A stretch of 64,000 bases of DNA, taken from Malacoraja senta. Its lineage: Eukaryota. Below the pieces are notes generated by a model. The model searched no databases and had not been told where the DNA came from. It worked only from the letters and a program-made list of their open reading frames with translations. The stretch lies in the NCBI GenBank assembly GCA_038087875.1, contig CM075989.1, forward strand, positions 930,001 to 994,000, given 5' to 3'. Made by a program: the position numbers and the translations under genes. This document shows positions 11,197-48,718 of the stretch, in pieces. How positions within the stretch are numbered: position 1 is the first letter of the stretch; each line of letters starts with the position of its first letter.

Positions 11197-11242
11197 TCGC
11201 GGTGCTGGGTAGCTGCGCTGGGTCCGGTCTTGCCCCCTGCCT

Positions 11243-11570
11243 CTGCCGTGTGGCCCATTGCTGGTCACTGCCCAGAGCTCCGTGCTGAGACCATTACAGC
11301 GCCCACTTCTGCCGTGTAGCCCATTGCTGGTCACTGCCCAGAGCTCCGTGCTGAGACCATTACAGTGCCCGCTTCTGCCGTGTAGCCCATTGATGGCACT
11401 GCCCAGAGCTCCGTGCTGAGACCATTACAGCGCCCACTCCCGCCGTGTGCCCATTGCTGGTCACTGCCCAGAGCTCCGTGCTGAGACCATTACAGTGCCC
11501 GCTTCTGCCGTGTAGCCCATTGCTGGTCGCTGCCCAGAGCTCAATGCTCAGACCATTACAGCGCCCGCTC
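11243..11570. repeat. Minisatellite, about 5 copies of a 65-66 bp unit just after the GPCR stop codon
   Basis: cccattgctggtcactgcccagagctccgtgctgagaccattacag recurs at about 11254, 11320, 11386, 11450 and 11516. Confidence 0.95.
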
Positions 11571-24200: not shown

Positions 24201-26360
24201 GCGGTCCCCTGCTATTTCCGGCAGATTATTTATGTCTTCCTAAGTGAAGACAGAACCAAAGTAGTTATTCAATTGATCCGCCATATCCTTGGTCCTCATG
24301 ATCAATTCACCTGTTTCTGACTGCAAGGGACCTACATTTGTTTTAACTAATCTTCTTCTTTTCACATATCTATAAAAACCTTTGCAGTCAGTTTTTATGT
24401 TCCCTGCCAGTTTTCTTTCGTAATCTATTTTCCCTTTCCTAATTAAGCCCTTTGTCCTCCTCTGCTTGTCTCTGAATTTCTCCCAGTCCTCTGGTACGCT
24501 GCTTTTTCTGGCTAATTTGTATGCTTCATCTTTTGTTTTGATACTATCGCTGATTTCCCTTGTTATCCACATATGCACTACCTTCCCTGATTTATTCTTT
24601 TGCCAAACTGGGATGAACAATTGTTGTAGTTCATCCAGCCGTCTTAAATGTCTTCCATTGCATATCCACCGTCAACCATTTAAGAATCAAATGCCAGTCT
24701 ATCTTAGCCAATTCACGTCTCATTCCCTCAAAATTACCTTTCTTTAAGTTCAGGACCCTTGTTTCTGAATTAACAATGTCACTCTGCATCCTAATGAAGA
24801 ACTCAACCATATTATGGTCACTCTTGCCCAAGGGGCCACGCACAACAAGACTGCTAACTAACCCTTCCTCATTACTCAATACCCAGTCTAGAATAGCCTG
24901 CTCTCTCATTGGTTCCTCTACATGTTGGTTTAGAAAACTATCCCGCATATATTCCAAGAAATCCTCTTCCTCAGCACCCCTGCCAATTTGATTCACCCAA
25001 TTTATATGTAGATTGAAGTCACCCATTATAACTGTTTTATCTTTGTTGCATGCATTTCTAATTTCCTGTTTGATGCCATCCCCAAATCCACTACTACTGT
25101 TAGGTGGCCTGTACACAACTCCCACTAGCGTTTTCTGCCCCTTAGTGTTTCGCAGCTCTACCCATATCGATTCCACATCCTCCAAGCTAATGTCCTTCCT
25201 TTCTATTGCGTTAAACTCCTCTCTAACCAGCAACGCTACCCCACCTCCTTTTCCTTTCTGTCTATCCCTCCTGAATATTGAATATCCCTGGATGTTCAGC
25301 TCCCAGCCTTGGTCACCCTGGAGCCATGTCTCCGTGATCCCAACTATATCATAATCATTAATTGCTATCTGCACATTCAACATCCACCTTATTACGAATG
25401 CTCCTTGCATTGAGACACAAAGCCTTCAGGCTTGTTTTTACAACGCTCTTACCCCTTATACAATTATGTTGAAAAGTGGCCCTTTTTGATTTTTGCCCTG
25501 GATTTGTCTGCCTGCCACTTTTACTTTTCACCTTGCGACCTATTGCTTCTACCCTCATTTTACACCCCTCTGTTTCTCTGCTCACACATTTAAGAAACCC
25601 ACCACCTCTTATTCTCTGTTTATTATCTTTTTCTTCTTTCCTCCCTACATGTTGGGTCTGAGTGCTTCCCTTCTCTGCCTCCTGCCTCACACACTGTCTA
25701 CTAGCTTTCTCTATTTGAGTCCCTCCACCCCAACCATTCTAGTTTAAAGTCTCCCCAGTAGCCTTTGCAAATCTCCCCGCCAGGATATTGGTCCCCCTCG
25801 GGTTCAAGTGCAACCCGTCCTTTTTGTACAGGTCGCACCTTCCCCAAAAGAGGTCCCAATGATCCAGAAACTTGAATCCCTGCCCTCTGCACCAGTCCTT
25901 CAGCCACACATTTATCCTCCACCTCGCTCCATTCCTACTCTCACTGTCGCGTGCCACAGGCAGTAATCCTGAGATTGTTACCTTTGCGGTCCTTCTCCTT
26001 AACTCTCCTCCTAACTCCCTAAATTCTCCTTTCAGGACCTCTTCTCTTTTTCTACCTATGTCATTGGTACCTATATGTACCACGTATCATACCCATCTTT
26101 TCTTTAAATACCGGGGCTAACCTCTCCTTCTACTCCTGGTACCGTGAGCAACTGGACGATCAATTACTGGTGGAGTGGATAGAGTCAAAGAATCTGGTGC
26201 CCAAGTGGCTGCTGTTCGTAGAGCATGCTCTAAGATTGAATCTGCAGAGGGTGTTATAGGTTCTGCAGGCTCTGGATATTTATTATGGACACAAGTCATA
26301 CAAGGTGTAAGCGAATCCTGGGGAACTCAAGAGGAACATGGTGGGAGCTGCAAATTTCTA
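21284..26360 (-). pseudogene. gag: Gamma/epsilon-type ERV gag, decayed and split by the CR1 at 22561-26083
   Basis: QFPVREV capsid start, HTPWKPHEIIAVLNKIPDRKKSP, MHR-like IKPKKGEGADEFLERFSRLY, and degenerate knuckle RYTCGGMGHWSRACP. Confidence 0.75.
22561..26083 (-). mobile_element. CR1 LINE: 3' part of ORF1 (SGNH/GDSL esterase) and ORF2 (APE-RT) with a few frameshifts/stops
   Basis: HIGTND..DGLHLN esterase; ITETW, GDFN and SDHN in APE; DFQKAFDKVPH, GVPQGSVLGP and FADD in RT; (catagaaa)n tail. Confidence 0.95.
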
Positions 26361-26370
26361 TCCTAAACAC

Positions 26371-26831
26371 AGTAGGGGTTTAATTCCACTTCGGGCCCAA
26401 CTGCCCAAGTGATTCTCTCCCTTGTCGGTGGGTCAAACGGCCACCACTCCACTCGAGCAGTTCCCAAGAGAGAATACACAAAAGGGGTTCCCCTGGGTTC
26501 TAGACCTCGGAAATATGGTGGGATATGACAAAGGGTTGACTTGACCAGAGTGTGCTGATGAGAGAAAACAGAAACCAAGACGGACTCAAAGCAAGTCTAA
26601 AATTTACAGGCTTTATTGAACAAATGAGAAATCGAATCTCACCAACTCTACATAATACGTGACTAAACTTATGCTTTAAACTAAGACTATGGAAAGAAAA
26701 TTATCGGGCATGTCGTAAAAACTTACTTTACACAATTTTAATTACAGATACACCCCCTTTCCTCTTCTTCTCTCAACGTCTATCCTATTTCGGGAATTTC
26801 ACCAGGTCGTCTGGGGTACTTACAGCTAGAT
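26371..26831 (-). mobile_element. 3' LTR of the loki-like provirus, R/U5 part
   Basis: Homologous to 47851-48329 of the solo LTR; AATAAA on the minus strand near 26612-26617. Confidence 0.85.
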
Positions 26832-27861
26832 CTTTATTTTTTAAATTTCAAAATAGACTTTATTCAACTAATAAATATATACAATACGTGAACCGTGCGA
26901 AAAATTTATCCGACATTTTCGGAGGCTATACAAATTGTTCAATGCAGTTAATACATATTTTTTTCCAATTCCACAAATCCGTCCCCCACCCATGCCACTC
27001 ATGTGGCCCCCTGGCATGGGACACCTTCCCTTATTTTGAGGGGCGTCTCCACCATACCGTGCCCCCCATGTCCAACAGCGGAAGGACCCTAGACTGTGGC
27101 CCTCCCCCACCGAGCCTTGGCGTTGGCTGCACCAAGCTTCAGTGCGTCCCTCAGCACGTACTCCTGCAGTCTGCAGCAGGCCAGTCGGCAACATTCCCTG
27201 ACAGACATCTTGCTCTGCTGGGTGGTGAACAACGCTCGTGCAGCCCAAAGAGCATCTTTCACCGAGTTGATGACCCTCCAGCAGCACTCGATGTCAGTCT
27301 CTGAATGTGTCCCTGGGAACAGTCCGTAAATCACAGTCCTCTGTGACGGAGCTGTTCGGGATAAAGCGTTCCAGGGACCCTTGCATACATCTCCATACTC
27401 TTTTTGCAAATCCACACTCTGCAAAGAGGTGGGCAACCGTCTCCTCTCCATAGCAGCCGTCCCGAGCGCAGCGTGCGCTGGCAGTGAGGTTCCGACGGTG
27501 CAGGAAGAATCTGACTGGGAGGGCTCCCCTCACCGCCTGCCAAGCCAGGTCTTGATGCTTGTTGGTGAGTTCTGGCGATGAGGCATTTTGCCAGACAAGC
27601 TGGACAGTCTGCTGTGGGAACCACGCCACCGGATCCATCGAGTCCTTTCCCTGCAGTGCCTGCAGGACATTCCGTGCTGACCACTGCCCAATGGACATGT
27701 GGTCAAAGGTGTTGGTCCGGAAGAACCTTTCCACAGACGACAGATGGGGCGGCAATGTCCAGCTGACTGGCACATTGCGTGGCATCTGCGCCAGGCTCAT
27801 CCTTCGCAACACCGAGGACAGGTAGAACCTCAGCAGGTAGTGACACTTGGTGCCCACGTAC

Positions 27862-28062
27862 CTTGGTTCTACAAATTGTGTTTCTTATTTTCTTTTTGTG
27901 CTTTTGAAATTGAATTCTGTCTTTGATTTGTGTACTGTGGTGTTTATATATTTAATTTATTCCGATAATGTGTTTTGTATTTTTGTTATTCTATGCCTTG
28001 TAAGGTGTCCTTGGGTTTTAGAAAGGCGCCAGTAAATAAAATGATTATTATTATTATTATTA
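27862..28062 (+). mobile_element. Short L2-type 3' end/SINE inserted in Tx1 ORF2
   Basis: taaggtgtccttggg..aaaggcgcc..aataaa followed by an (ATT)n tail; interrupts the Tx1 reading frame. Confidence 0.7.
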
Positions 28063-28490
28063 CACACCGCCTGATGCAGCCACACACAAAGGTGGCCATC
28101 AGGGTGAGGGCGACGTTGGGCACGCTTTTACCCCCGTTGTCTGCTGACTTGTACATTGTGGCCCGTCGCACCCGGTCTATCCTCGACCCACAGATGAACT
28201 GGAAGACGGCCCGGGTGTTCCCTGTGGCGTAGGAGGGAGGGACAGGCCACACTTGCGCCAAGTACAGCAGCCCCGAGAGCACCTCACACCTGATGACCAC
28301 ATTTTTTCCGGTTATGGAGAGGGAGCGTTGCCTCCACAGCTCCAGCTTCTTCCCCACCTTGACTATCCGCTCCAGCCAATTCTTGTTACACGCCTCAGCC
28401 CCCCCGAATCAGATCCCCAGCACCTTCAAGAAGTCAGGCTAGATGGTGAAGGGGACAGAAGTTCGGTCGGGCCAGTTGCCAAAGAGCATG

Positions 28491-28761
28491 TGTTAAAGAA
28501 GGATTTAATATTGGGTATGCCGGTAGATGGCCAGTCGGTACCGATAGTCCGGCTGAGGTCCGAACTGGGAAGTAGGGAACTGGAGCTGGAAGCCATGAGG
28601 TATGAGATGGAGGCGCAGGCATGCCCCGAGGAAGCAGATGTGGCTGTGGTATCCAGCTCCACATGTGTCTGAAGAAGGGTTTCGGCCCGAAACGTTACCT
28701 ATTTCCTTCGCTCCATAGATGCTGCTGCACCCGCTGAGTTTCTCCAGCATTTTTGTGTACC
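28491..28761. mobile_element. 271-bp Penelope-derived insertion (inverted ORF piece and hammerhead unit) in the Tx1 RT
   Basis: 14-bp TSD TGCCAAAGAGCATG (28477-28490 and 28762-28775); minus-strand peptide YHSHICFLGACLRLHLIPHGFQL; plus-strand CTGAAGAAGGGTTTCGGCCCGAAACGTTA at 28669-28697. Confidence 0.85.
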
Positions 28762-31195
28762 TGCCAAAGAGCATGGCTTTGCTCTTCCTGCGGTTCACCC
28801 TGGCTCCCGTGGCCGACTCAAACTGGTCGCAGACACTAATCAGTCTGCGGACCGACCCTGGATCCGAGCAGAAGACAGCGACATCGTCCATGTACAGGGA
28901 GGTTTTGACGAATGCCCCCACTGCCTGGAAATGTCACTCCTCTTATGCTCGCATCCTTCCTGATGGACTCGGCAAAAGGTTCAATACAGCAGACAAACAA
29001 GACAGGAGAGAGAGGGCACCCCTGCCTGACTCCAGACCATACAGGGAAACTGTCTGATTCCCACCCATTGATTTGGACTGCACTACGGATATTGGTGTAG
29101 AGCAGTTTGATCCAAGTTCGGATTCCGTCCCCAAAACCCATTTTGGAGAGCACGTCCCTCATGTACATGTGCGATATCCTGTCGAAGGCCTTCTCCTGGT
29201 CCAAGCTGACTAGTCAGGCATCCACCTGTCTGTCCTGCCCTTAGGCGATGGTGTATCTCAGCAGCGCTAGGCTGTCTGAGATTTTCCTGCCAGGTACAGC
29301 ACAGGTTTGGTCCGGGTGGATCACCTGTCCCAGAGCAGACTTGACCCGGTTGGCGATGGCCTTAGGCAGGATCTTATAATCTACATTCAACAGTGTTATG
29401 GGTCTCCAATCCTTTATGTCCTTCATCTCCCCCTTCTGCTTGTAGATTAGGGTGATGCTGCCCTTCCTCATCGAGTCTGCCATGCTGCTGGCTAGAAGCA
29501 TGTCGTTGTACACTTCCAGCAGGTCCGGGCCCACCCAGTCCCACAGAGCCGAATACAACTCGGCCGGTAAGCCACCGCTTCCGGGAGTTTTACTCGAGTC
29601 AAAGGAACGGATGGAGCCAGTCAGCTCCTCTAGGGTCAGTGGTTGGTCCAGACTCTCCCGCTTGCTTTCCTCCAAGACCTCCGTGATAGACGACAGGAAG
29701 TTCTGTGAGGCGGTGCTGTCTGTGGCCTTTTTGTCGTACAAATCCGTGTAAAAGGATTTGCAGATCCTCAGCATGTCCGTCTGCGAGGATGTTACCGAGC
29801 CGTCCTCCTCTAAGGCTGTTCATCACAGAGCTCCCCCTGTGAACCTTATGGAAGAAGTAACGTGAGCACGTCTCATCCTGCTCCACATGGCGGACCCTGG
29901 ATCGGATGATGATCTTGGAGGATTCAGAGGTAAAGAGCCGAGCTTGCCGGTCCTTCACCTCTCTAAGTTCCTCCCTCACATCCACCCCACTCGACTGCAG
30001 AAGGAGCAGTTGTTACAAATCTGTCTGGAGTTGGCACAATTCCCTCTGACTCTGTCTTGCTCTCTGAACCCCTTTAACTATGAAGAACCTCTTAATGTTC
30101 TCGTTGGTTGCTTCCCACCAGAGTGTCGGGGAGTCAAAGAGGGGCTTCACCGTTCTCCAACATGCAGAGTCCCTCTTTAGCTCCTCAACGTTCTCTGGGG
30201 TCAACAGCTTCATATTTAACTTCCACATCCCCCTGCCTGCCTTCCGGTCCTCCTGTAGGTGACAGGAAGCCTGAAGGAGGCAGTGGTCAGAGAAGAACAC
30301 GGGCGTGAGGTCGGTGTGTCTCACCGTGACGGCCTTCGTCATGAAGACAAAGTCTATCCGGGGTCGGGCTAAACCGTCCGATCTCGACCAGGTGAACTGC
30401 TGCTGGGACCCGCCTGCAGGGTTGCTGAAGGCGTCGTGCAGCTTTGCATCTTTTACCGTCTCCATGAGGAACTTGGACGTACTGTCCAGTCTGTTGTCGG
30501 CACTGCCGGATCGTCCAGCCGCATCAATGATGCAGTTGAAGTCACCGGCCAGAACGAGCTGCCGGGACGTGGCCAGCAGCGATGGGAGCTGCTGGAGAAC
30601 GGCCAGCCGCTCGCTCTGCATGGGTGAGGTATACACATTAATCAGCCAGAGCGGAGAACCACGGTACATAACATCCACCACGGGGAGACGCCCCCCAACC
30701 ACCTCCCTGACCTCAGTGATGGCGAAGTTCCCTCCCCGCAGCAAGATCCCCAGGCCGGAATCGCAACAGTCATTGCCCCCCGACCACACCGACAGTCCGT
30801 GGGGCCACCATCGCGACCACCTCCGATAGCAGCGGAGGTGAGGCAGCCTGCACTCCTGGAGAAAAGTCACATCTGCCTTGACCTTGGCCAGGTACTGCAA
30901 GGTATTAACACATCGCGCAGTGTTCTTTATACTGCGCACGTTTAAAGATGCCATTTTTAGCTCCATTGTCTTTAGAGTTACTGACCATATTTGTGTCCCC
31001 TTATGCCCACTGCTTCGGTGAATTGCCTCAGCTTTCCTGGGCTCAGGAACACGGTGCCGGCATCCTCGATGAGGTGGGTTTCCTGTGGCGTAACCCAAGG
31101 TGTCGTTGGGAGGGGGGCCTACTCGTTCCACCCCCTTCTGGGCGCGCTGCTTCCTCCGTCTCCTGTAGCTAGGGTACGGTGGCTGGTTCTCTGCA

Positions 31196-31370
31196 CCCGG
31201 TCGCCCGGAGCTGGGGCCCATTGGCCTCTGCGCTGCTCCCGGTCGCCCAGAGCTGGGGCCCATTGGCCGCTGCAATGCTCCCGGTCGCCCGGAGCTGGGG
31301 CCCATCGACCGCTGTGATGATCCCGGTCTCCAGGGGCTGGAGCCCCTCGGCCGCTGCTCTGCTCTCGGTC
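31196..31370. repeat. 42-bp (14-aa) coding tandem repeat in the Tx1 ORF1 tail
   Basis: cccggtcgcc/cccggtctcc at 31196, 31238, 31280 and 31322; encodes ANGPQLRATGS-like units. Confidence 0.9.
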
Positions 31371-32720
31371 TCCTGGGGCTGGGGGATGATCGGCGTGGCC
31401 TTCCTCTTTTCCTCCCCTGTTTTCTTCCTCTGCCTCCATCGTTGAGACTTCCCGGTCGCCTCATCCTCCGACGAGGAGAGGTTGCTGCCTTCTGTCAGGG
31501 AGAGAGATCTTTTTTGTAATTTATTTTTGGACTTACCAGCCCTTTCCGACCTCGGCTCCTTCGGCTGATCCCTCTGGTGCTCCTTGTACATCACCGTCGT
31601 CCATTTCTCCTGCTGTTCGCCCTCCTCCATCGACTCTCCCTCCTGGGCAGGGTGCTGGGGTTCTTCTTCAGGCACTTGGTGGCTCGAGGTGGTCGGGCTG
31701 TCCTCGTCCTTGTTCCCCCTTTCCGCTGCAGTCTTGGCAGTGGTGAGGGGTGTCTCACCCACCCTGGGGGTGCTGGCAGCAGCCGCTCTTGTCACCTGTG
31801 CATAGGTGCAGGCTCTTTTAGGGCAGGCCCTGTAAAGGTGGCCTGCCTCCCCGCACAGGTTGCAGTTCTTGCTGGCCTGACAGTCCTTTGTCTCATGGTC
31901 CTCCGTCTTGCAGTTCTTGCAGACAACTGCAGTGCATTGGGCCATCACATGCCCAGGCTTGTTGCATTTCCTGCACAGCCTGGGCTGCCCCACGTAGCTC
32001 ATGTATCCTCGGTTTCCTCCAATTGCGAAAACCGAGGGAGGGTGGAGGAGTGCTCCGTCCTTGTCCACCCTCAGCTTTACCTTGACTTGCCGCTTGCTCG
32101 TCCAGATCCCATGCAGGTCCTTCACGTCCACGCAGCTCCCTGTTCCCTCAATGTAACGGGCAAGGAAGGTGAGGACATCCACTACGGGCACATGTGGGTT
32201 AAACATGTGCACCGTGATCATCCTTTCCTTCTGGGTGGGGAGAGTGAAGAGCGGCTGCACTTTCAGCAGCGACAGCGGAGCTTCATTCCCCTTCTCCCGG
32301 AAGTCGTCCATCAACTTTTGCCAAACCCGTCGGATACTTGAAGGTAACGTCAAAGTATCCGTTACCCGGGAAGTCCTGGAGGCAGTAGATGTCCTTCGCC
32401 TCAAATTTTCAGGCCCCCAGCAAGATCTTCTTCACGAACAGGTCCCGTGAGAAGGGAACCCCCTTGCTGAGGTCTTTAACGCTGATAGGGTATTGCGGAT
32501 ACCCTGTACTCCCGCTCCAGTTGCTGCTGCCATTGTGGCTGAATGAGGTGTTAGGTTGGTTGCCCAACCAGCATAGATCCACCTCTAAGCCCGCAGCCGA
32601 CCGACTCCTCGTCACCGGTCTTTCGATGATTCCCAGTTTTCGATCTGGCATGAACAATAGGCTTCCGATGATAATGGGTTTGCTGAAGTCATGATGCCTC
32701 AGCCTGATCGTTATCCCATC

Positions 32721-33034
32721 ACCTGGATGGGCTCCCATTGTCCCAATGGATGGGTCATCCACGAGGGTGATTGTCTTGCTGCTGGGCTGTTTACCCCCGT
32801 CTGCTGAGGCTCGGTTCCTTTCTTCCTCGGTCCTCTCCGTCCCGGCCTTTCCTGTTCACACCATTCGCATAGTCATGTAATGCCCAGGCCCACAGACAGG
32901 TTTTAAACTGGTTCTTCCTTTGTGGATTGGGATTTTTTCCTTTGCAGCCAGCAAGTCTGTTTTAAAAATGTCCATGGTCCTCATCCCCGAGTTCTTCCAT
33001 AATCTTGGGGAGGATTTGTCCCCAATAACTTACA
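32721..33034 (-). mobile_element. 3' LTR of the loki-like provirus, U3 part
   Basis: Homologous to 48400-48718 and ends AACTTACA; the minus strand has a short purine run (AGGGG) just upstream. Confidence 0.85.
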
Positions 33035-33318
33035 TGCCCCTACGGTACGTCCAAGCTTGCACGGACCGTATCGATTGACAAAGTTAGTGGGCAACTCCTC
33101 CAGTCTCAAGAGTGGTAAACATCCCTGTCGAGATTGTGAAATTATGTACCCCGAAAGACCCCTTAATTGTTAAACTAGACCCTCGAAGCACATTAACTTA
33201 CACTATACACCTTTTACTTTAATCCATCCCACAATCCATACAGTACCATCACGACCGTTTCCTTAAAATGCAGGGTACACAACATATGTACGAAAACCAT
33301 TGCAAGAGTACAAACATT

Positions 33319-34606
33319 TTACAGTGCCGAGGTGTCGTTACAGCTGCATCGAGCGGCTCGATTTACCAGCTGTTGTAATTTGGCCATCCTCCTCCGCCTT
33401 TTAAATTTGCAATTAATAACATAGCAAATACACCACAATTATCATCTGGCAGATGATCAGAACATGGGACACGATGCGGACCCATACTGGAACTACGATC
33501 CAGGACTCCAGGTCCCACGAAGTTGGAGACTTGATTTCTTCGATCTCCCTGGCGATATCCAGTGTCTTTTGTTCCAGGGAGAAGAAGTGTTTGTGCGACA
33601 ACTCGACCGCCGGCAGCAACTCTTTTAATTTTTCCTTCACTGGGGGAATATCATACCCGAAATGGGCCACATAGTTAGATAAGTCCGTTACATTTTCTCG
33701 TACCGAGAAGGATGGGTAATATTCGCTGATGTGCCACATGGACTTCTGCCCTGGGTTTAAAACAGAAGCTGCTGTGTGGTATCGGGCACCACAGCTGTGA
33801 TCCATGCTGATACCGCTGGGCACTTGTGGTGACACAGTACTTCCCGCTGCGTATATACGCCACCTGTGGAGGGACATGGTCTGCCGCCATCGCCTCCATG
33901 GTACAGTTTATAGGCTGTGCCCCAACAGTCCTGAACCCACACTGAGGCCTAGCCTCGGGCCCATGTGCTGGGGACACAGGATTACCTGTGCTCCCCGGCT
34001 CCGACAACCCAAAAGGGCAATGCCTGTCACAGCTTGCTCCCTCATTATGACATAAGGCGGGACCTCCCCGTAGCGAATATGCACCCCCCCACGAACAACT
34101 CCCACGTTCTCCACTCGGTACAGAGGAGCTGGTCATGCCGAGATTCTTACGACCACTCCCATTATGGTGTGATTGGACTTTCCGCAATCCACCGGAACTG
34201 GGTAGGCCTCGGAGGCCACACAAAGCTGACAAGGACTCAAAGTGCTGTTATAAGGGTGTAGCGCTGCTAGGTGCTGGTTGCTTATCCAGGAGGGGACCCA
34301 ACCTTGCCTCAGGTCTTCCAGGTTGCTCCTCCCCTCCCCCAACGACCTCGCACCATACAGCCCACACACCTCATTCTGTGCAGCCTGATCAGATGCATTC
34401 CGGTCCTCTTTAATCAAAGCGTTTATCGTTTTTACATGTGTCTCCAATTGTGCTATGATTTATTTTAGATGTAGAGTCATTGCCACCTCTTCGTGCAGCC
34501 CCAATCCTACCACCGCATTTTTCTCCCCCAGGACCTCGTTGCCACCATCCATACAGCGGGGCTACCCATCAGGAAAACAAAGCAAAACACCTACTTGCCT
34601 CCACAT
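33319..34606 (-). pseudogene. env: env-like gene, F-type fusion glycoprotein remnant (frameshifts, internal deletion)
   Basis: Reconstructed across frames: signal-like MWRQVGVLLCF/MGSPAVWMVA; heptad IIAQLETHVKTINALIKE; NLEDLRQGWVPSWIS; Cys-rich CRSRGAQVILCP..PQCGF..INCTM..GKYCVTT..CPIPHSSFCFKP; heptad LEQKTLDIAREIEEIK; TM VWVRIVSHVLIICQMIIVVYLLC; basic tail CKFKRRRR; NxS/T sequons. Confidence 0.75.
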
Positions 34607-34890
34607 CGCTATCCGCCTCCCTGCACTCCATCACACCCATGGAAGAGTGGCCATCCAGCCGACGGTAGCGGCTACCATCCTAATAATGGCATTCGGGGTT
34701 TTGTCTTTGTCTGTTGTGGTCTACTTTTCCACAGCCAATCGCTTCGATGCAGCCGACGTTCCCATACTGTCCGTCCCTGTACTCCCCTGTATCTATACAA
34801 AACCCTATATCTTATTACTAAACGCTAACTACATCTACTCACACACAAACCAATGCTATATACAACGCCACCCGTCTCCGGGTGGCCAAC

Positions 34891-37800
34891 TCATAACTGG
34901 TCCCCATCACGCTGGGGCCACCCCTCTGGTGGGCCCACCCGTGCAGGCCAGAACTCCTCCTGTCGAGGGGCCTGACTGCCCCTCACCTCCCTTTGCTCTA
35001 CGGGGTTTCGAGATACCCCGACGTTCCCTGCGGAGACTGGGCTCCCTCCAGCCGCACTCCGTAGTGCCCTGTTTCGGCCACTCTCCTTCCCGGCCCTCCT
35101 GTGGCCGGCCCTGGCCCTAGGTTTAATCAGGGATGGAGACCACCTTACTGGGGGTTTAGTGACCCTGTTTCTCCTACGTCTGACCGGGGGTTCCCACACC
35201 AGAGGTGATACCTCCATCTCCTCTGCTTCTGCTAGTTCTGCCTCTCTTAGGCAGTCTATGGTACCTGCCTTCGGAGGGCTGGAATCAGCATCCTTCCCCG
35301 CTGCTTCCAGTCCTCGCCCTGGGACACAGCAAGCTACTTCAGGCTGACTACCTGTGGGCTCGCCTGGCTCTCCTACGGTTTCCACATCAACCCGGGTCTG
35401 TTCTTGATCCTGTTCCCTGACATGTACCCCTTTCTTGCTTTCCCCTGTGCTTGTGGGGTCGAACAATTTACACTGGTTGATGTGGAACCATTTGACTCTA
35501 CGGGGAAGCTGAATGGCATACACCATGGGACTGGCCTTGTCCACTATGTTGTATGGGCATGCATACAAGGGATCGAACACCCCTACCCTAGCATATCTCC
35601 TGACCATTACCTGGTACCCCACTGCCCACGCGCAATGCCTGCGAGGCACCAGCAGTAGCTTGTTTCTTTGGTGCTGGGCCCCCATGTTTCTGGCTACCTG
35701 CCAGTGAACCTGCCTAAGTTGTTCAAATATAACCATATAACCATATAACCATTACAGCACGGAAACAGGCCATCTCGGCCCTTCAAGTCCGCGCTGAACA
35801 ATTTTTTTTAATTTCCACCCCCCCCTTTTTTTTTTCCACTACTTCCTTCCCCCTAGTCCCATCTACCTGCAATCAGACCATACCCCTCCATTCCATTCCC
35901 GTCCATATACCCATCCAATCAATTCTTAAAGGATAAAATCGAACCTGCCTCCACCACTTCCACTGGAAGTTCATTCCACACAGCTACCACTCTCTGAGTA
36001 AAGAAGTTCCCCCTAATGTTACCCCTAAACCTCTGTCCCTTAATTCTTAAGTCATGTCCCCTTCTTTGAATCTTCCCTAATCTCGAAGGGAAAAGCTTAT
36101 CCACGTCCACTCTGTCTAACCCGCTCATAATTTTAAAGACTTCTATCAAGTCCCCTCTTAACCTTCTGCGCTCCAAAGAATAAAGACCTAACTTATTCAA
36201 CATTTCTCTGTAACTTAGTTGCTGAAACCCTGGCAACATTCTAGTAAATCTCCTCTGTACTCTCTCTATTTTGTTGACATCCTTCCTATAATTAGGCGAC
36301 CATAATAGTACTCCATACTCCAGAATTGGCCTCACCAATGCCTTGTACAATTTTAACATTACATCCCAACTTCTATATTCAATGCTCTGATTTATAAAGG
36401 CCAGCACACCAAAAGCTTTCTTTACCACCCTATCTACATGACATTCCACCTTCAGGGAACTATGCAAAGTTATTCCTTGATCCCTTTGTTCAACTGCATT
36501 CCTCAATTCGCTACCATTTACCATGTACGTCCTATTTTGATTTGTCCTGCCGAGATGTAGCACCTCACATTTATCAGCATTAAACTCCATCTGCCATCTT
36601 TCAGCCCACTCTTCCAAATGGCCTAAATCTCTCTGTAGACTTTTAAAATCTACTTCATTATCCACAACACCACCTATCTTAGTATCATCTGCATACTTAC
36701 TAATCCAATTTTCCACACCATCATCCAGATCATTGATGTACATGACAAACAACAGTGGACCCAACACAGACCCCTGAGGCACCCCACTAGTCACCGGCCT
36801 CCAACCTGACAAACACCCATCCACCATTACTCTCTGGCATCTCCCATTCAGCCACTGTTGAATCCATCTTGCTACTCCACCATTAATACCCAACAATTGA
36901 ATCTTCTTAACCAACCTTCCATGAGGAACCTTGTCAAAGGCCTTACTGAAATCCATATAGACAACATCCACTGCTTTACCCTCATCAATTTCCCTAGTAA
37001 CCTCTTCGAAATATTCAAGAAGATTAGTCAAACATGACCTTCCAGGCACAAATCCATGTTGACTGTTTCTAATCAGACCCTGCTTATCCAGATGCTTATA
37101 TATATTATCTCTAAGTATCCTTTCCATTAATTTGCACACCACTGACGTCAAACTAGCAGGTCTATAATTGCTAGGTTTACTCTTAGAACCCTTTTTAAAC
37201 AACGGAACAACATGCGCAGTACGCCAATCCTCCCGCACTATTCCCGTTTCTAATGACATTTGAAATATTTCTGTCATAGCCCCTGCTATTTCTACACTAA
37301 CTTCCCAAAGAGGCTAACTTAGCCTCTTGGCAAACTTGTCCCGGTTCACTTCCCTGAGCTGTCCCTCTTTTAAGGCTGGGACCATAACGTGCATGGGCGT
37401 TCTCATGACCCGGCCCGTCATAAGCTCATGGGGAGAGTACCCCATACTCCTGGACTGGCTGGCCCGAATCCCCATAAGGACCAGGGGTAAAACCTCCACC
37501 CTCCAGTTGGGTGAGCCCCCTGTTTCCTTCCTTATCCTTTCCTTTATTGTCCGGTTCAACTGCTCTGCCGGACCTGAGGACTGGGGGTGGTAGGCCAGAT
37601 GCCACTTGGCCTTGATGCCCAGTATTCTAAGGGTGGACTGCATGACCTGTCCCGTGAAATGGCTCCTCTGATCTGATTCCACGAACTGTGGGAGTCCCCA
37701 CCTGGTGAACACCTCCCTAACCAGGATTTTTGCCATACCCACAGCGGTGGCTGCTCTGCAAGGGAAGGCCTCTACCCATTTTGAGAACACATCCACAAGG

Positions 37801-40664
37801 ACTAAGCAGTACTTGTAACCCCCTTGAGCGGTTGGAAGGGGCCCGATGTAGTCGATTTGAATTGACTGCCATGGCCCCTCCATCCTCCTGATGTGTCCCA
37901 TAGAAACCTTCCTTTTCTGGGGGTCTGGGTTGTTTGCTGCGCAAACCAGACAGCTTGCACAAAAGTCGCGAATGTCTCCCCTGAGCCCTGGCCACCATCC
38001 TGCCATCTCTACTCGCTGCCATGTGGTCTCTGGCCCGGGGTGAACTGCCCCTGGACCCTCATGGGCTAGTTTTAAAAATTCCCTTCTGTACAGGGAAGGC
38101 ACTACCCACTTATCTCCCTTGAATAACATGCCTTCCTTTACTGATATGTCTTTACGCCCATACAGTCCCTCTATCGTCACCTGCCTGCAAATGGCTGCTG
38201 AGGCAGCCTTTAAAATGGGGTCTTGTGCCTGGACCGTGGTCAGGTCCGGGGCCAAAACCACTCCCGCACTCCCCTTTTCTCGAGGCTGCTCCCTGGCTGC
38301 AGCTACCTGTCCTTCCTCATAGGGGTCCCATGCTTTCCCACTCCTGGCTCCTTCTCTGGCCAAGCGATCCGCCCTCTGATTTCCCTCGCCTTGTGGCTCC
38401 GTTTTGGAATGGGCCTTCACCTTATGGATATATCTATCCCCGCCCTTCCCTACGGCTGCTACAATCCTCTCTAATAGGGGTTTAATGGTCAGGGGCTTCC
38501 CGTCCGATGAGGTGTACCCTCGGTGGGACCAGATGGCCAGATATTCCGTGCAGGAATTGCATGTGAACATGCTGTCCGAACATATGGTGTATGGAGGGGG
38601 GAAACGCTTGAGATGGGTGACCACGTACATTACCGCCGCCCACTCGGCCTGCTGGGTGCTTAACGTATGTGGGAGTTTAAGGGTTAGGGTTATCTCTGCC
38701 TCGGTGTCCCATATCCCACAGCCCGTGAGCTTTATGCCCTCGGACACGATACTGGACCCGTCCACGTATATTTCCCTACCAGTGGGATGTAACCCTGCTC
38801 TGTCCAAAGTCCACCTCCCATACCCCTTCCACCGAGCAATGGTGTGGCTCCCCTGGGTACACCAAATTGGCTGAGAGCTTGGGCTCACATAGCCTCTCAA
38901 CCCATAAGGCCATTTGGAAAAGGAGAAGGGTCCAGCGAGTGATCCTCACACTGCTAACGGTCCCATCCTTAATCTCACCGTCCAGCAGCATCTGGGTTGG
39001 GGTATGGTGGGTCAGTGCCCAGTATGTGGCTAGCAGGTGTCGCTCACAGTTTGAATAGGACCTTTCTACCTCTGTGAGGACTCTGGAGGAATACACCACT
39101 GGCCTTAACTTGCCGTGCCGTTCCTAGAGGAGCACTACGCTCAGGCCATCACTGCTTGCGGCTACCTCCAGGAAAAATTCCTCCCTGTAGTCGATGGCTC
39201 CCAGAGCTGGGGCCTTTTGCAGGTCCCGCTTCAAATGGATGAATGCCGACTCGCACTGCTCATCCCACTCCCACTCTACCCCTTTGCGTAGCAGCCGGAG
39301 CAGAGGTGCTGCGGTCGCGGCATAGTCCTCTATAAAGTCTCGGCAATAGCCCGTGACTCCAAGAAATGACCTTGGTACAGGGAGTTCCTGCACTGCCTGC
39401 CTTCTTGCTGTATCGATACCCCTTTCTCCGGCCCTAAGGGTCAGTCCCAAGAACTTTACCTCTTGTAACCCTATCTGTGCCATCTTGGTATTTACTTTTA
39501 AACCGCTCTTACAGAGCAGCTCCAGCAGTTCGTTTATAGGGGCCCATGTTCCTCACTGGTGTCCATGAATAGCAAAATATCATCCACATACTGGACGACC
39601 TTGTGGGGCTCAGTGAATTCCTTTAAACATTCCGCCATACATTGGTGGAAAATGCTGGGGCTATTGTGGAACCCTTGGGGAAGACAGTTCCATGTGTACT
39701 GCTGCCCCTTGAACGTGAAAACAAATTTGTACTGGTCTTCCTTCCTGACCGGGATAGACCAGAAACCGTTTGAGATGTCAAGCACCGTAAATACAGATGC
39801 AGACGCCGGAATTTCCCCTAATAGGGCTGCTACAGCTGCCACAGTTGGTGCGCAAGTCGGAATGTTCTTATTCAGGACCCTATAATCTACCGTGGCCCTC
39901 CATGAATTGTCTGGCTTCCGTACGGGCCAGAGCGGTGAGTTCACGTGGGTGGCTATGGGCCTCAAAACGCCTTGCTTAACCAGTGAACTCAGGGCGACAT
40001 CTAAGTCAGCCTCCGCTTCTCGGGGAAAACTATACTGTTTCTGCGGTCGGGACATGGGATCCCCTTCTATCCTGACCTCTGTTCCTGTGACCCTTCCACA
40101 GTCGTGCTTGTGAGTAGCGAACGTGGCCAAATTTCGCTTAACAAGGCCTTGATACTCTGTCGGGGTCTGCCTCACTAGGGCCTCTACATCGTACCCCTCT
40201 CTGGGCTTCACAACACACAGAGCCCCTCTCTCTGGTGCCCTCTCGATGACCATGACTTTCTTCTCTCTCTCAGCCCCTTCTCCTGCTATGCCCTACAAAC
40301 AGTGGTTCCTCAGGTCCACCAGGGCCTGGTGGGTCACTATAAAGTCAGCGCCTAATATCCCCTTTCCCTCCTGCTCCCAACTCATCAGTACGCACTTCCA
40401 CTGCGCCTGGAGTGCTCCTAATCGAATGGACAAGGGAACAGAGAAATACTCCGTCTTCTCGTTTCCCGTAAAACCGACAAGACTATAGGGCGCCCCACTA
40501 GATAGAGGGGATGTACGGGGATTGTCCGTGTGGACAATGGTACTGGAAGCACCTGTTTCCAGCAGGTAACTCCCGACCACATCCTGGACCTCCATCTTGA
40601 CCCAGGGTTTCCCACATGGGCCATACTCTAACGGGCATAGGAATGTGGGCTGTTTTGCTGGCAG
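34891..40664 (-). pseudogene. pol: pol: protease, RT, degenerate RNase H, second RNase H, integrase with long tail; interrupted by CR1 at 35730-37310
   Basis: LLETGAS (protease, D to E); LDISNGFW, LPQGFHNSP, YVDD; RH1 EVAASSDGLSVVL..VYSSRVLTEVERSYSNCERHLLA; RH2 YVDGSS..QQAE..SDS..KVKAH..GNQRAD; IN H..H..CxxC, QIDYIGPLP, VDVFSKW, SDQ, YHPQSSG. Confidence 0.92.
35730..37310 (-). mobile_element. 5'-truncated young CR1 LINE inserted in the integrase
   Basis: 452-aa open RT with YADD; (accatata)n tail; small inverted duplication at the 5' junction (ccaaagaggctaa/cttagcctcttgg). Confidence 0.95.
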
Positions 40665-42336
40665 TCATAAAGGTGCCGGGGGTGCGGAAACGGGCGCGCC
40701 CTGGCCTGTTGCCATGGCTATCTGTCCGGACCCTCCCGCCTTGGACTGAAATAGGCCAATAGATCTTTTACACCTATTGTTCCCGGCATGGCCGCTCCCT
40801 CCTCCGGGGCTGGGTCTGCTGTTACCGGGGTCCTATCGTCCACTGCTCTACTTGGGTTTCTGCACTCCCTCTTGTAGTGCCCGGGCTTCCCACACCCGTA
40901 GCACACCGGCCTCATCTTGGAAGAGGTCTGGCTGCCTTCCTGTTTCCACTCCCTCCTTTTGGTGGGTGGCGGTACTATACTTTGCACCTTGCCCTTAAAG
41001 GGCTTCTCCTTACTTCTCTCCCCGTTGCGATACGCAAGGTTGAGCTTCCTTTTTACCTCCGCCTCGTTAAGGTTTGGGTCCGCTGGGTCGAACCAGTGCT
41101 CGGCCTTTGCCCTAACTCGCAGGAGGCAATTCGCTACCAGAGTCTTCAGCCAGTGGGCTGTTCTCTCATCTAAATTCCGCCTATCTAAAGGCGTCCCACA
41201 CGCTCCCTCATACACTGACCACAGTCTGTCTGCGAACATGTCCAGGGACTTGGCTACCGGCTCCTTAGTCTCCCCCACCCTGGCGAAAGGACTACCCTGA
41301 TTCAACCTCGTGGCCTCCAGAACCGCCGTCTGTGCCGCTACCCATGTTTCAGGTCTCCCCCTTCCCTGGAGGTCACCGCCTTGCAAAGGTAGGAATCCAG
41401 GGTCATCAGTAGTAGCTTTACCCATTCTACCTCATCGCAATCATTTATGTCGGCCGCCTGCTGCACCTCCATAAAATACAATGACAGGTCTCCTGCCCTG
41501 GTTAACCTGGGAACATGAGCCACCATCCCCCTCAGCACGTGTGCCCCATGGGGAATGATGATATCACTCTCTATGGGCCCCCTATCTGCCTGCCCTACCG
41601 GGGGACCATATTTCCTTTGCCGTACTGGGCACATCTGCCCTACCCGGGGCTGTTGCCCCTTTACCCCCTGCTCTTCCACCATGATCGGTAACCCCACCAC
41701 CTCATGGTATGCTACACATGGCACAGATGCCGCTAACTGAGGGTGCTCTCCCACCCCTCCTTGGGCCTGTCCCTCCCCAGACAACCCAAACCCCACCTGC
41801 CGACCCGGACCTATTCTCGGCGCCTCAGGAGGCGGTCTATTCCCCTTTTCCCCTGGGGAATCATCTGCTGAGGGAAGCCCTCTGCCCCCGAGGGACCCCC
41901 CTGGTCCTACCAGGTGAACCCGTCCCCTAGTCTTCGTCAGAGTCTCCTCCAGCTGCGCTACCCTTGCCTGGCAAGGCCCGTGATCACAATCCCCTAGCTC
42001 GCTACGGGACACCATGTAAGCTGCTTGGATATCTTGGAACTATCCCTCCAGCTCCCTGTACCTCTGTGTACTCTGAGCCAGGAGTTCCTGGGCGTTCCTT
42101 TCCCTCTCCTTTGCCTCTACCACCTGGCATTGGAGGAATTCCTGGGCATTTCTGGGGGATTCCCTAGCCTGCAAGATACACTGCCTGGCTTCACTGAGTT
42201 CCTCATATAGCCCTTCCCCTACTCTAGCGCTTTCCTCAGTGCTGGCCCTAGTTTTTCTCATTTGCTCTTCTAGACTCTCTACCTGTCTCTCCATATTGGC
42301 TACCAGCTGTGATAGGCATGCTAGGCACATTGCCAT
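40665..42336 (-). pseudogene. gag: gag of the loki-like provirus (frameshifted)
   Basis: N-terminal coiled coil (ERQVESLEEQMRK..), capsid-like helical region, CCHC knuckle CYGCGKPGHYKREC, ends PVSAPPAPL-TGA. Confidence 0.8.
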
Positions 42337-42344
42337 TTCCTGCC

Positions 42345-43260
42345 TTTTATTATAACCTTTACTTTCCGTCCATTCTCCCCCTCAAATTGTAGATTAAAAC
42401 ATCATATTATGGTCACTACCTCCTAATGGCTCCTTTACCTCAAGTTCCCTTATCAAATCCAATTCATTCCACAAAACTAAATCCAGAATTGCCTACTCCC
42501 TGCTGGGCTCCAGTACAAGCTGCTCTAAGAATCCATCACGGAGGCACTCCACAAACTCTCTTTCTTGGGGTCCAGTACCAATCTGATTTTCCCAGTCTAC
42601 CTGCATGTTGAAATCTCCCATAACAACCGTAGCATTACCTTTGCGACATTAACTCTTGATTCAACTTGCACCCTATATCCACGCTACTGTCGATAACTCC
42701 CATGAGGGTATTTTTACCCTTACAATTCCTCAGTTCTATCCATACAGACTCTACATCTCCTGATTCAATGTCACCCCTCACAAGGGACTGAATTTCATTC
42801 CTCACCAACAGAGCTACCCCACCCCCCTCTGCCCACCTGTCTGTCTTTTCGATAGGACGTGTACCCTTGAAAATTCAGTTCCCAGCCCTGGTCCTCTTGC
42901 TGTCATGTCTCTGTAATTCCCACAACATCATACTTGCCAATTTCTAACTGAGCCTCAAACTCATCCAGTTTATTTCTTATACTTCGCACATTCATATACG
43001 ATACTTTAACTTCGGTATTCACCTCCCCTCTCACACCGGCCACTATTGGCCCTGACCTTATTCTCTTATCCCTTCTCGAACTTTCCTTCCCATTAATTCA
43101 CTTTATTGTTATCTGCAAACTTACTTTTCATACCTTGTACATTCTCACCCAAATTGCTGTTACAAACCACAAACACCATTGGACCCAGCACCGATCACTG
43201 AGGGACACCACGTGTCAGCCTCACCAGACCTATAAAGGTTTCTATTAATTATTTCCCCAC
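42345..43260 (-). mobile_element. Decayed CR1 fragments (APE N-terminus, then an RT piece)
   Basis: Reverse strand shows NVRSIRNK, VVGITET, GDFN and SDHN remnants. Confidence 0.8.
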
Positions 43261-44225
43261 ACATTAAACCTATGCTCAGTGCAGTAATCCTTCATTATAA
43301 TAGATCATTGGGGGGGAATGGTATCTGTTATTGCCAATTGTACGCTATAACCATGTAAGGTAGTATTGTAAAAGTTGTAGAAACAAACAGCTGCAGTTGC
43401 TGGCGAATACACAAAAGAGAACAAACTCAGCAGGTCAGGTTGCATCTCTGGAGAACATTAAGAGATCATGTTTTAAGTCAAGACCATTTTTCAGAATTGG
43501 TCCAGAACTGGGCCTGGAATGCAGGTGAGTTGATGGTCCCGGCTTGCTGGCAGCCGGGGGAGAGGCGAGGATCAATGGAATCAATGGTCGCAGCCTGCAG
43601 GTGGCCGGGGTGCAGGTAAGGGTTGGCGGTGGGGTGGTGATCGCAGGAACGGGTGTCATGGGTAGCTGGGGGTGGCGTGGGAAGCTGGGTGTGCGGTGGG
43701 GGCAACTAAAGCTGTAAGCGGCAGGGTAGTGGCGTGGGCAGCCGGTGGTGGCATAGGGAAGACGGGGCTGTAACCTGCAGGATATAGGGTGTGGGTAGGG
43801 GGTGGCATGGACAGTCTTTGGTAGGTCCTTGCGCTACAATCCAAATCCATTATAATGAGGTCTGTTAAAGCAAGGGTTTACTGTAGTTCCTGATTCTACT
43901 GCCTTAGGGAAAAGACTCCCTGCATTTACACTATCTATGCCCCTCATCATTGTAGACACCTCTAGACGATCACCCCTCATCCTCCTGCACTACTTGGAAT
44001 GGTACCTGGATGCGGCGCCGACAGACAAGAGGCCGAAGCAAAGAAGCCGAAGCCAAGGAACCGAATAGGAACGAGGCTGAAATGCCAATGAACCGAAAGA
44101 GTCTGAAGACGAAACACCTACTAACTGAAAGGATGGGATGCCTAAATGCAAACTAACCGAAAGGGCAGGACGCCTAAACGCCAACGAACCAAAAGGCTGC
44201 AAAAGATTCCATTTGAACCTCGAGG

Positions 44226-47200
44226 GTACTGATCTCCGGATTGCTACCTGAGCCACGGGCCAAATCGGCGAGGGTACGAAAAATTAAAAAGCTGAATGCG
44301 TGGCTCAAAGACTGGTGTGGGAAAAATGGGTTTGGTTTCTTGGGCCACTGGCACCAGTACTGGGACAGGGGGGATCTGTTCTGTAAGGACGGACTTCACC
44401 TGAACGGTGCTGGGACTGGGGTCCTGGCAAATCATATAACTAGGGCAGTAGAGAGGTCTTTAAACTAAGTAGCGGGGGGGAGGTATCAAGGGGGGTAATA
44501 ACGGCAGGGGTAGAGGAAATAGAGCAGGGTATCAGTGGGGAAACGGAAAATCAAAATGTGACAGGAGGATCCAGAATGTGTGAAGATAAAGCTCTAGATG
44601 TAAAAGGGGCAAAAACAGAAAGGAAGGGTAGTAAAAATCATCTGAAAGTGCTGTATCTAAATGCACGGAGTATTCGAAATAAGATAAATGAATTAACGGT
44701 GCAATTAAGTACATATAGTTATGATATCGTGGCCATTACGGAGACATGGCTGCAAGGGGATCAGGATTGGGAGTTAAATATAGAGGGGTACTCGACAATT
44801 AGAAAAGATAGACAGGAAAGAAAGGGAGGAGGGGTGGCCCTTTTAATAAGGGAGGGAATAACGGCAATAGAGAGGAAGGATATTGCGTTGAAGGATCAGG
44901 ATAGTGAAACAGCTTGGGTACAGATAGAGAATAACAAGGGGAAAAAAACACTAGTGGGTGTAATTTATAGACCTCCAAATAGCTGTGACGCTGTTAGTCA
45001 GAACATAAATCTGCAAATAGTTGACGCATGTAAAAAGGGAACTGCTGTAATCATGGGGGACTTCAATTTTCATATTAATTGGGCAAACCAAACTGGGCAG
45101 GGTAGACTAGAGGAAGAGTTTATAGAATGTATTAGAGACGGGTTCCTAGAACAGTATGTCACAGAACCGACAAGGAGGGAGGCAATCTTGGATCTGGTCC
45201 TGTGTAATGAAGCAGGATTAATTAAAAATGTCATAGTTAGGGACTCGTTGGGAACAAGTGACCACAATATGGTCGAATTCCATATTCAAATAGAAGGGGA
45301 GCAGGTTGAAACTCAGGCTAGGGTACTTAGTCTAAATAAGGGGGATTATGAAGGTATGAGGACTGAGCTGATCAAAGTTGACTGGGATAGCAGACTCAAG
45401 AATAAGACGGTACATGAGCAGTGGTGTACGTTTAAGGATCTACTGTATAACCTTCAAGAAAAATTTATTCCTATGAAGAAAAAAAGGGGTAAGGGAAAGA
45501 ACAGTCAGCCATGGCTCAGTAAAACTATAAAGGATAGTATTCGGCTGAAGGCAAGGGCATATAAGGTAGCTAGAGATAGTGGGAGGGTAGAGGATTGGGA
45601 AGCATTTAAAGGTCAGCAAAAAATAACTAAGAGATTAATTAAGACGGGGAAAATAGACTATGAAAGGAATTTAGCGAACAACATAAAAACTAATAGTAAG
45701 AGTTTTTATAGCTATATAAAAAGAAAAAGGGTGGCTAAGGTGAACGTTGGTCCATTGGAGGGTGAGACTGGAGAGTTGTTGGTGGGGAACATGGAAATGG
45801 CAAAGGCATTAAACGAGTATTTTGTATCAGTCTTCACCATAGAAGACACAAAAAATATTCCAACGCTGGATAAACAGGGGGCGGTAGGAATGGAGGAGCT
45901 AAATACTATTAAGATCACCAAGGAGGTGGTATTAGGGAAATTAATGAGACTGAAGGAGGATAAATCCCCTGGGCCTGATGGATTACATCCAAGGGTCTTG
46001 AGGGAGATAGCGGTGGGGATTGTGGATGCATTGGTGATAATTTTCCAAAACTCCCTGGAGGCAGGAACGGTCCCAGTGGATTGGAAATTGGCCAATGTAA
46101 CACCTATATTTAAAAAAGGAAGTAAACAGAAGGCGGGTAACTATAGACCGGTTAGTCTAACATCGGTGGTGGGTAAAATGTTAGAGACAATTATTAAAGA
46201 AACACTAACGGGGCACTTGGATAGACATGACTTCATCGGACAGAACCAGCATGGTTTTGTGAAGGGGAAGTCCTGTTTAACGAATCTGCTCGAATTCTTT
46301 GAGGAAGTAACAACCCGGGTGGATAAAGGGGAACCGGTGGATGTGGTATACTTGGACTTCCAAAAGGCTTTTGACAAGGTGCCACATAAGAGACTATTGC
46401 TAAAAATAAAAAATTATGGGATTGGGGGTAATATATTAGCATGGGTAGAGGATTGGCTAACAAATAGGAAGCAGAGAGTGGGGATAAATGGTTCATACTC
46501 GGGATGGCAACCGGTAACTAGCGGGGTTCCGCAAGGGTCGGTGCTGGGACCCCAGTTGTTCACAATTTATATAAATGATTTGGAGGAGGGAACCAAGTGT
46601 AATATATCAAAATTTGCGGACGATACAAAAATGGGAGGAAAAGTAGGGGATGAGGAGGATAGGAAGAGTCTGCAAAAGGATATAGATAAGCTAGGTGAGT
46701 GGGCAACAACTTGGCAGATGAAATTTAATACTAATAAATGTGAAGTCATTCACTTTGGGAAAAAAAATGATAGGGCAAGTTATTTTCTAAATGAGGTGGA
46801 GCTGCGTTGTAATGCAACGCAAAGGGATCTAGGGGTAGTAGTACATGAATCACTAAAAGTTAGTATGCAGGTGCAGCAAGCAATCAGGAAGGCCAATGGA
46901 GTTTTGGCCTTTATTGCTAGGGGGATTGAGTATAAAAACACGGAGGTCTTGCTGCAGCTGTACACAGTATTAGTGAGACCACATTTGGAATACTGTGTAC
47001 AGTTCTGGGGTCCATACTTAAGAAAGGATGTACTGGCCCTGGAGGCAGTGCAGCGAAGGTTTACAAGATTAATTCCTGCAATGAGGGGATTGACATATGA
47101 GGAAAGGTTAAGTAGGCTGGAACTCTACTCTTTGGAGTTTAGAAGAATGAGAGGCGATCTCATTGAAACATATAAGATCGTGAGGGGCCTTCATCGGGTG

Positions 47201-47850: not shown

Positions 47851-48718
47851 TGTAGGGGTTTTGTTCCCTTTGCTCCACTTCGGGCCCAACTGCCCGTGTG
47901 ATTCTCTCCCTTGTTGGTGGGTCAATCGGTCACCACTCCATTCGAGCGGTTCCCAAGAGAGAATACAAAAAAAAAGGGTTCCCCTGAGTTCTAGACCTCG
48001 GAATTATGGTGGGATATGATAAAAGGTTGACTTGACCAGAGCGTGCTGATGAGAGAAAACAGAAACCAAGACGGACTCAAAGCAAGTCTAAATTTACAGG
48101 CTTTATTGAACAAATGAGAAATCGAATCTCACCAACTCTACATAATACGTGACTAAACGTATGCTTTAAACTAAGACTATGGAAAGAAGATTATCGGGCA
48201 TGTCGTAAAAACTTACTTTACACAATTTTAATTACAAATGCTCCCTCCCCCCCCCTTTCCCCTTCTTCTCTCAACCTCTATCCTATTTCAGGAACTTCAC
48301 CAGGTCATCTGGGGTACTTACAGCTAGATTGATGCAGGGTCAGGAGCCGTCCAACAGAGCAGAAAAGAGAGAGAGCTCTTGCATGCCTGTCCCTTTTATA
48401 CCTGGATGGGCTCCCATTGTCCCGATGGATGGGCCATTTACGATGGCGATTGTCTTGTTGCTGCGCTATTTACCCCGTCTGCAGGGCTCGGCTCCTTCCT
48501 TTGTCTTTCCAAGATAATCTCGTTATCTCCATCCCGGCCTTTCCTGTTCTCACCATTCGCATAGTCATGTGGCTGCCCAGGCCCACAGACAGGCTTTGAA
48601 CTTGTGATCCCTTGTTTTTTTTTCCTTTTGCAGCCAGCATGTCTGTTTTAAAATGTCAATTTCCTTATACCCGAGTTCTTCCATAATCCTTTGGAGGATT
48701 TGCCCCCAATAACTTACA
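47851..48718 (-). mobile_element. Solo LTR (868 bp) of the loki-like family
   Basis: TGTAG...TTACA ends; 4-bp TSD CACC (47847-47850 and 48719-48722); minus-strand TATAAAAG near 48393-48400 and AATAAA near 48102-48107. Confidence 0.92.

Follow-up and report, generated by a model that had tools for sequence, protein, structure and literature searches.

The 64,000-nucleotide stretch of DNA analysed here (the window) very probably holds a dead copy of a multi-copy elasmobranch endogenous retrovirus (ERV) whose reverse transcriptase (RT) falls within the classical retroviruses, likely on the side of snakehead retrovirus (SnRV) and the class III ERVs, and whose env is likely of the F type. Six-frame translation and Pfam placed all named parts of the provirus on the minus strand, from 26371 to approximately 42373. 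Every component of the minus-strand unit described in a first-pass annotation of the window was recovered, namely gag, protease, RT with YVDD, two RNase H domains, integrase, a glycoprotein with a transmembrane (TM) anchor and an LTR.

In the direction of transcription, the copy begins with a 5'-truncated and frameshifted gag remnant (40668..42373, minus strand), which lacks the first ~59 codons and aligns, at 74-86% identity, with residues 60-618 of the gag product of another copy. It retains one CCHC knuckle (Pfam zf-CCHC, 40721-41431, E 7e-5), while its coiled-coil N-terminus drew only weak matches to coiled-coil families in Pfam. The adjoining pol segment (37320..40664, minus strand) encodes protease, RT, tether RNase H, second RNase H, and the zinc finger and core of integrase, and is damaged by frameshifts at ~39537 and ~38800 and by two in-frame stops. 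Its Pfam matches comprise an aspartyl protease at 40296-40664 (E 5e-4, below the curated cut-off), RVT_1 at 39537-40292 (E 3e-25; motifs LPQG and YVDD), RT_RNaseH/RT_RNaseH_2 at 38779-39552 (E 3e-8 to 1e-7), and a second RNase_H (E 9e-18) with Integrase_H2C2 and rve at 37317-38945. When the catalytic positions are located by eye from established motifs, the tether RNase H is degenerate, its catalytic residues replaced, and the second RNase H retains D-E-D-D. Integrase is interrupted at ~35728..37319 (minus strand) by a nested LINE fragment, presumably CR1-like (RVT_1, E 1e-35), which is missing from all ten copies fetched from the genome; one public contig links 35727 directly to 37320. Beyond it, 34894..35727 (minus strand) carries the SH3-like C-terminal part of integrase and a long pol tail, matching pol residues 1133-1411 of another copy at 89%; the Pfam match of the SH3-like part is weak (PF24626, E 0.0014, in the frame 34894-35751).

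The env remnant (33322..34618, minus strand) preserves the start of the gene and then residues 369-785 of the 785-residue family Env, including the TM anchor, with frame changes and one stop. Some 1.07 kb are gone at ~34535, a segment equivalent to the Ig-like module, the cleavage site and the fusion peptide; because the latter two are deleted, the F-like nature of the protein is unreadable from the window copy alone. A short purine-rich tract (33035..33050, minus strand), a putative plus-strand primer, lies ahead of the 3' LTR in a context equal to that of seven other copies. The 3' LTR itself is split. Its inner, U3-side part (32619..33034, minus strand) starts with TG and is 80% identical to the solo LTR described below and 71% to positions 1-372 of another copy's LTR; its outer, U5-side part (26371..26831, minus strand) is 92% identical to the solo LTR over 457 nt and 90% to positions 506-854 of the other copy's LTR. 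Between the halves sits a nested non-LTR retrotransposon (~26832..32618, minus strand; PF23058, PF00098, PF03372, PF00078, PF13966), which we take to be Tx1-like from its domain make-up. Its ORF1 encodes a ZCCHC3-type RNA-binding domain and zinc knuckles, its ORF2 (APE-RT-zf) is broken, and a 42-bp tandem array (31144-31384) occupies the junction of the two. Neither a 5' LTR nor a primer-binding site was found anywhere in the window. The window provirus is thus a dead copy, being 5'-truncated, frameshifted, partly deleted in env and invaded by two LINEs; deletions and the two insertions would have disabled it after its arrival.

A further LTR of the family, bounded exactly by TG...CA, occupies 47851..48718 on the minus strand. 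It is flanked by a 4-bp target-site duplication of its own and has no primer-binding site beside it, and is thus a separate solo LTR and not the 5' LTR of the window provirus. Other repeats were observed in the window. A CR1-like LINE at 44444-47452 (plus strand) retains an uninterrupted endonuclease-RT frame of 1002 residues, and a more decayed, inverted relative of it lies at ~22743-25447. An inverted short repeat of ~130 bp (44032-44196 and 48824-48952, 91% identity) stands on either side of that LINE and the solo LTR. A stretch of ~2.4-3 kb occurs twice, at 1262-3692 and 58535-61652, 57-58 kb apart and 94-99% identical, representing either a recent duplication or a young repeat. Further tandem arrays are found at 11187-11569 (66-bp unit) and 59454-59587 (42-bp unit).

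The host was identified through the acetylcholinesterase of the same genome. Among the 120 matches listed, this protein is 87-88% identical to those of sharks, 79-83% to rays, 72% to that of the chimaera Callorhinchus and no more than 72% to those of bony vertebrates, and it falls in an elasmobranch clade with support of 99/99, within which the choice between shark and ray is unresolved. The cartilaginous-fish host surmised in the first-pass annotation is therefore upheld and narrowed to an elasmobranch.

The genome contains at least 152 matches to the window RT, from a search in which 150 out of 11685 candidates were scored. Most of them are 88-96% identical to it, and a second subfamily has RTs ~72-77% identical. 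Ten copies, chosen for having both RT and env matches, were fetched; probed with window sequences, seven had the full LTR-gag-pol-env-LTR arrangement, two were truncated and one belonged to the diverged second subfamily. The layout of the family is an LTR of ~880 bp (TG...CA), a primer-binding site, gag, a TGA codon, pol in the same frame, env and a second LTR, flanked by 4-bp target-site duplications. Six of eight LTR pairs were clean, ~880-920 bp long with 4-bp duplications, and differed by K2P distances of 0.0011-0.0132; the remaining two are a complex tandem (0.0024 and 0.0234) and a pair that could be compared over 221 nt only (0.023). The clean pairs correspond to ~0.25-3 Myr at a rate of 2.2e-9 (PMC7947760) or to 2.5-30 Myr at 2.2e-10 (PMC4422223), in a sample biased towards well-kept copies. 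Near-identical LTR pairs such as these point to recent activity in elasmobranchs.

Two steps of the replication cycle can be proposed from the better copies. Firstly, in eight of eight copies the long frame upstream of pol, which is continuous with the pol frame, closes with a TGA whose next base is C, and Gag-Pol may accordingly be produced by read-through of the TGA. Secondly, the primer-binding site is complementary to host tRNA-Arg(TCG): a pattern derived from it matched two places, at one of which ARAGORN predicted tRNA-Arg(tcg), a candidate primer for reverse transcription.

The first-pass annotation had staked its reading on the linkage of env and pol in other copies, and this linkage holds. 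Among the 29 best other copies, chosen by RT alone, 26 have env behind pol on the same strand: 17 with env within ~8 kb downstream (counted by hand) and nine of the other twelve in fetched DNA. The remaining three are without env within 10 kb. In two copies (L133 and L135) integrase is followed by an LTR, with no env match, possibly marking an env-less sub-lineage.

The identity of the polymerase decides whether this family is a lokiretrovirus, as had been proposed. Motif B of the window RT reads CLPQGFHNSP, against xPFG in 24 of 24 published Loki RTs; LPQG likewise occurs in the SnRV, foamy, gamma and epsilon rows. An RT phylogeny of the kind that the first-pass annotation had suggested (IQ-TREE, LG+G4; 57 of 126 RT rows, rooted on nine gypsy-type rows) reproduces the published topology, with lokiretroviruses (seven rows, 100/99) sister to retroviruses (41 rows, 100/94), and places the window element inside the latter. 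The anchors were SnRV (P0008, which matches the paper's row), feline foamy virus (P0097) and WEHV1 (P0085), together with seven lokiretroviral proteins recognised by their signatures, including those of Labeo rohita (P0080) and an eel relative (P0060); alpha-, beta-, gamma-, delta-, lentivirus and Odin RTs are absent from the trees. Forcing the element into the loki clade costs 49.65 log units (p-AU 0.0195), a constraint tested after the free trees had been seen, on a grouping named beforehand by the first-pass annotation. A quick tree of 42 rows under a mixture model again keeps lokiretroviruses (99) apart from retroviruses (94), and in an integrase tree of 32 rows, from which CGIN1 itself is absent, the element lies outside the four loki integrases (100/98). 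The family does not behave as a Ty3/Gypsy element (Metaviridae), for which an RT among the metaviruses and a single active RNase H would be expected: the RT does not fall there, and a second RNase H is present besides the tether.

Within the retroviruses, the element groups with SnRV and with frog and coelacanth proteins labelled 'NYNRIN-like' at 97/90 under LG+G4; under the mixture model it stays with the frog and coelacanth rows (87) and SnRV falls into a polytomy. SnRV shares motifs with the window RT and is 41-43% identical to it. SnRV-like (clade Huo, class III) ERVs are known from amphibians, zebrafish, coelacanth and a chimaera (PMC4422223, PMC4977317), and include CmiERV lineage I of the elephant shark (Han 2015, PMC4422223). 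The window family differs from these in being simple, without accessory ORFs, in an integrase only distantly like that of SnRV, and in an Env tail of ~30 residues compared with 136 in SnRV. The nearest RTs are the 'NYNRIN-like' proteins of frogs, Xenopus and coelacanth (P0003-P0006, P0021, P0025; 45-54% identity), which are also neighbours in tether and integrase but are separated from the window element by a long branch of ~1 change per site. We observed that the label 'NYNRIN-like' spans both true lokiretroviral Pol and this LPQG-type retroviral lineage of frogs and coelacanth.

Some features do recall the lokiretroviruses (Wang and Han 2021, PMC7947760), which share the LTR-gag-pol-env-LTR arrangement, the tether and RH, and a NYNRIN/CGIN1-like annotation of integrase, and whose Envs have a signal peptide, RxxR site, fusion peptide, coiled coil and TM, with motifs in equal order. 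The Gag has a coiled coil, the Env resembles both Loki Envs and F0, the best named RT matches are 'NYNRIN-like', as they would be for a real lokiretrovirus, and integrase scores 232-250 bits with loki integrases against 133 bits with that of SnRV. The dual RNase H, put forward in the first-pass annotation as a loki hallmark, does not discriminate, since all retroviruses possess tether and RH (PMC7947760). Against these likenesses stand the LPQG motif of an RT inside Retroviridae proper, where lokiretroviral RTs with xPFG lie outside, the trees and the AU test, and the placement of integrase; moreover, the frog and coelacanth RT matches were not those of the paper's Loki-Rca, -Lch and -Xtr rows (0/3 motif look-ups). 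No smc gene was seen in the window family, and elasmobranchs are an unreported host class for lokiretroviruses, Fig. S1 of PMC7947760 giving none in six chondrichthyan genomes. A true lokiretrovirus, the first in cartilaginous fish, is thus highly improbable, and because the RT lies inside the classical retroviruses, the extension of the lokiretroviral host range to chondrichthyans is withdrawn with it. An F-like env, dual RNase H and a NYNRIN-like annotation are, in combination, insufficient for a lokiretrovirus call.

The family Env comprises 785 residues, including 26 cysteines and nine sequons, and has a hydrophobic peptide after an RQRR site, one TM and a short basic tail; a signal peptide is likely, judged by eye only. 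RQRR is present in eight of eight env frames and the TM in seven of eight. For residues 230-760, the best Atlas match was Fusion glycoprotein F0/PF00523 (0.93, 202 shared features, with 11 of 30 matches in that set). This score is for part of a protein, to which the error rates of Atlas do not extend, and 4-10 of every 100 shuffled proteins attain 0.9. By eye, the Env and nine Loki Envs share, in order, GP-S/N-G, the cleavage site, F-x-T-G...NS, DLRxGR(I/V)P, a Y-R-x-x-NVG strand and a pre-TM cysteine pattern. A search of Pfam gave no PF00523 match at E ≤ 1, one of PDB sequences no meaningful match to F, and the AlphaFold model of Env was of too low confidence (pLDDT 29) to display an F fold. 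Together, the Atlas match and the likeness to Loki Envs favour the kinship with Mononegavirales-type F proteins proposed in the first-pass annotation, and the env of this family likely encodes a fusion protein of the paramyxo/pneumovirus (measles/RSV) F type. Such an Env would be cleaved by furin and would fuse membranes as those proteins do.

In the eight Loki Envs read with their N-terminus, the F-like part follows soon after the signal peptide (PMC7947760), whereas the window family has ~210 additional residues there. Several weak matches suggest that this N-terminal module is probably Ig-like: Pfam Ig_3 at E 0.063 in two of four members, Atlas V-set at 0.89, CRTAM at E 0.18, and CD8-alpha at E 0.75, the last in an alignment that pairs both cysteines and the tryptophan. 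Its structural model is all-beta (pLDDT 48) and returned no significant match in Foldseek. Because receptor-binding modules can be accommodated at the N-terminus of the F scaffold (PMC11468914), the module may serve attachment.

The third ORF might be a mere passenger, and not a working fusogen, of an LTR element that multiplied within the germ line. High copy number and the three copies without a nearby env would fit such an element, as would the poor AlphaFold model of Env (pLDDT 29). Weighing against it, env is open at full length in several copies, and the cleavage site, fusion peptide and TM are retained in both subfamilies as well as in a skate and a sawshark. Furthermore, dN/dS was below 0.5 in 14 of 15 non-independent pairs among six envs picked for long open frames, and 0.08-0.12 between subfamilies, where dS is near saturation; for pol, two pairs within a subfamily had values of 1.7 and 0.59. 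We regard a passenger ORF as very unlikely. The conservation of env between copies suggests instead that the family spread at least partly through re-infection.

Homologues of the Env were found in a skate, Rhinoraja longicauda, and a sawshark, Pristiophorus japonicus, only (two matches, 7999 candidates scored), by a word-based search to which distant envs are invisible. The second-subfamily env is 85-91% identical to the Rhinoraja longicauda protein, which is compatible with a skate host but is not proof of one. The sawshark protein, annotated 'Niban 1-like' (P0020), carries family Env in its first ~250 residues (64% identical) fused to a Niban-like protein, and is either an annotation artefact or an exonised env.

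An endogenous foamy-like virus of cartilaginous fish has to be weighed as well, and a study of such a virus has reportedly been published. A Gag with a CCHC knuckle, sharing the frame of pol with a single stop between the two, is unlike that of foamy viruses, which differ from the window family in Gag and in the expression of Pol. In addition, the RT stands apart from feline foamy virus in both trees, which hold two foamy-side rows only, and foamy viruses (Spumaretrovirinae) form a separate RT clade. What they share with the window family is an F-like Env, seen by cryo-EM without sequence conservation with F (PMC11468914), and they are the only members of Retroviridae proper that we found in print with one. 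On balance, we consider a foamy-like identity very unlikely.

If the family is, as we prefer, a classical retrovirus with an F-type Env, the origin of that Env may be read in two ways, each of which we advance tentatively. Env swaps are common in retroviruses, and an SnRV-side retrovirus may have taken a lokiretroviral env once, in the elasmobranch lineage, in which case the frog and coelacanth relatives would have ordinary retroviral envs. The confinement of env homologues to skate and sawshark fits such an event, as does a likeness to Loki Env motifs strong enough to be seen by eye; the reach of the word-based search tempers the former, and the six chondrichthyan genomes mentioned above offer no lokiretroviral donor. 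Both diverged subfamilies (RT identity 72-74%, dS near saturation) carry env, so that any swap must be old, and the F fold of foamy Env (PMC11468914) fits inheritance. The other possible reading is that a deep aquatic branch of true retroviruses, present in sharks, skates and probably frogs and coelacanth, retains an ancestral F-type Env inherited in common with lokiretroviruses and foamy viruses, to which an Ig-like attachment module was added, and that it entered elasmobranch germ lines until recently.

An elasmobranch provirus that combines a classical-retrovirus polymerase with an Ig-extended F-type envelope is the probable outcome of this analysis. We found no published SnRV-side retrovirus with an F-type Env in the literature searched, which lacks most subscription papers, and a vertebrate ERV study has been announced as forthcoming (10.1101/2023.10.26.564294). 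Should the Env of SnRV itself prove F-like, the window family would simply be a member of the SnRV clade. In the literature examined, F-like envelopes are described in lokiretroviruses, outside the classical retroviruses (PMC7947760), and, by structure only, in foamy viruses (PMC11468914). A non-foamy retrovirus nested within Retroviridae whose Env can be recognised as loki/F-type from its sequence would be a third data point, and would make the origin of Env testable by comparing env and RT trees. If the Env is indeed of the F type, this kind of envelope has a wider distribution among retroviruses, and possibly a greater age, than has been documented. Wang and Han set out four scenarios for the origin of retroviral Env and excluded none (PMC7947760); if the ancestral reading is true, the Env of HIV and MLV type would be a later replacement, and the elasmobranch family would help to select among the four.
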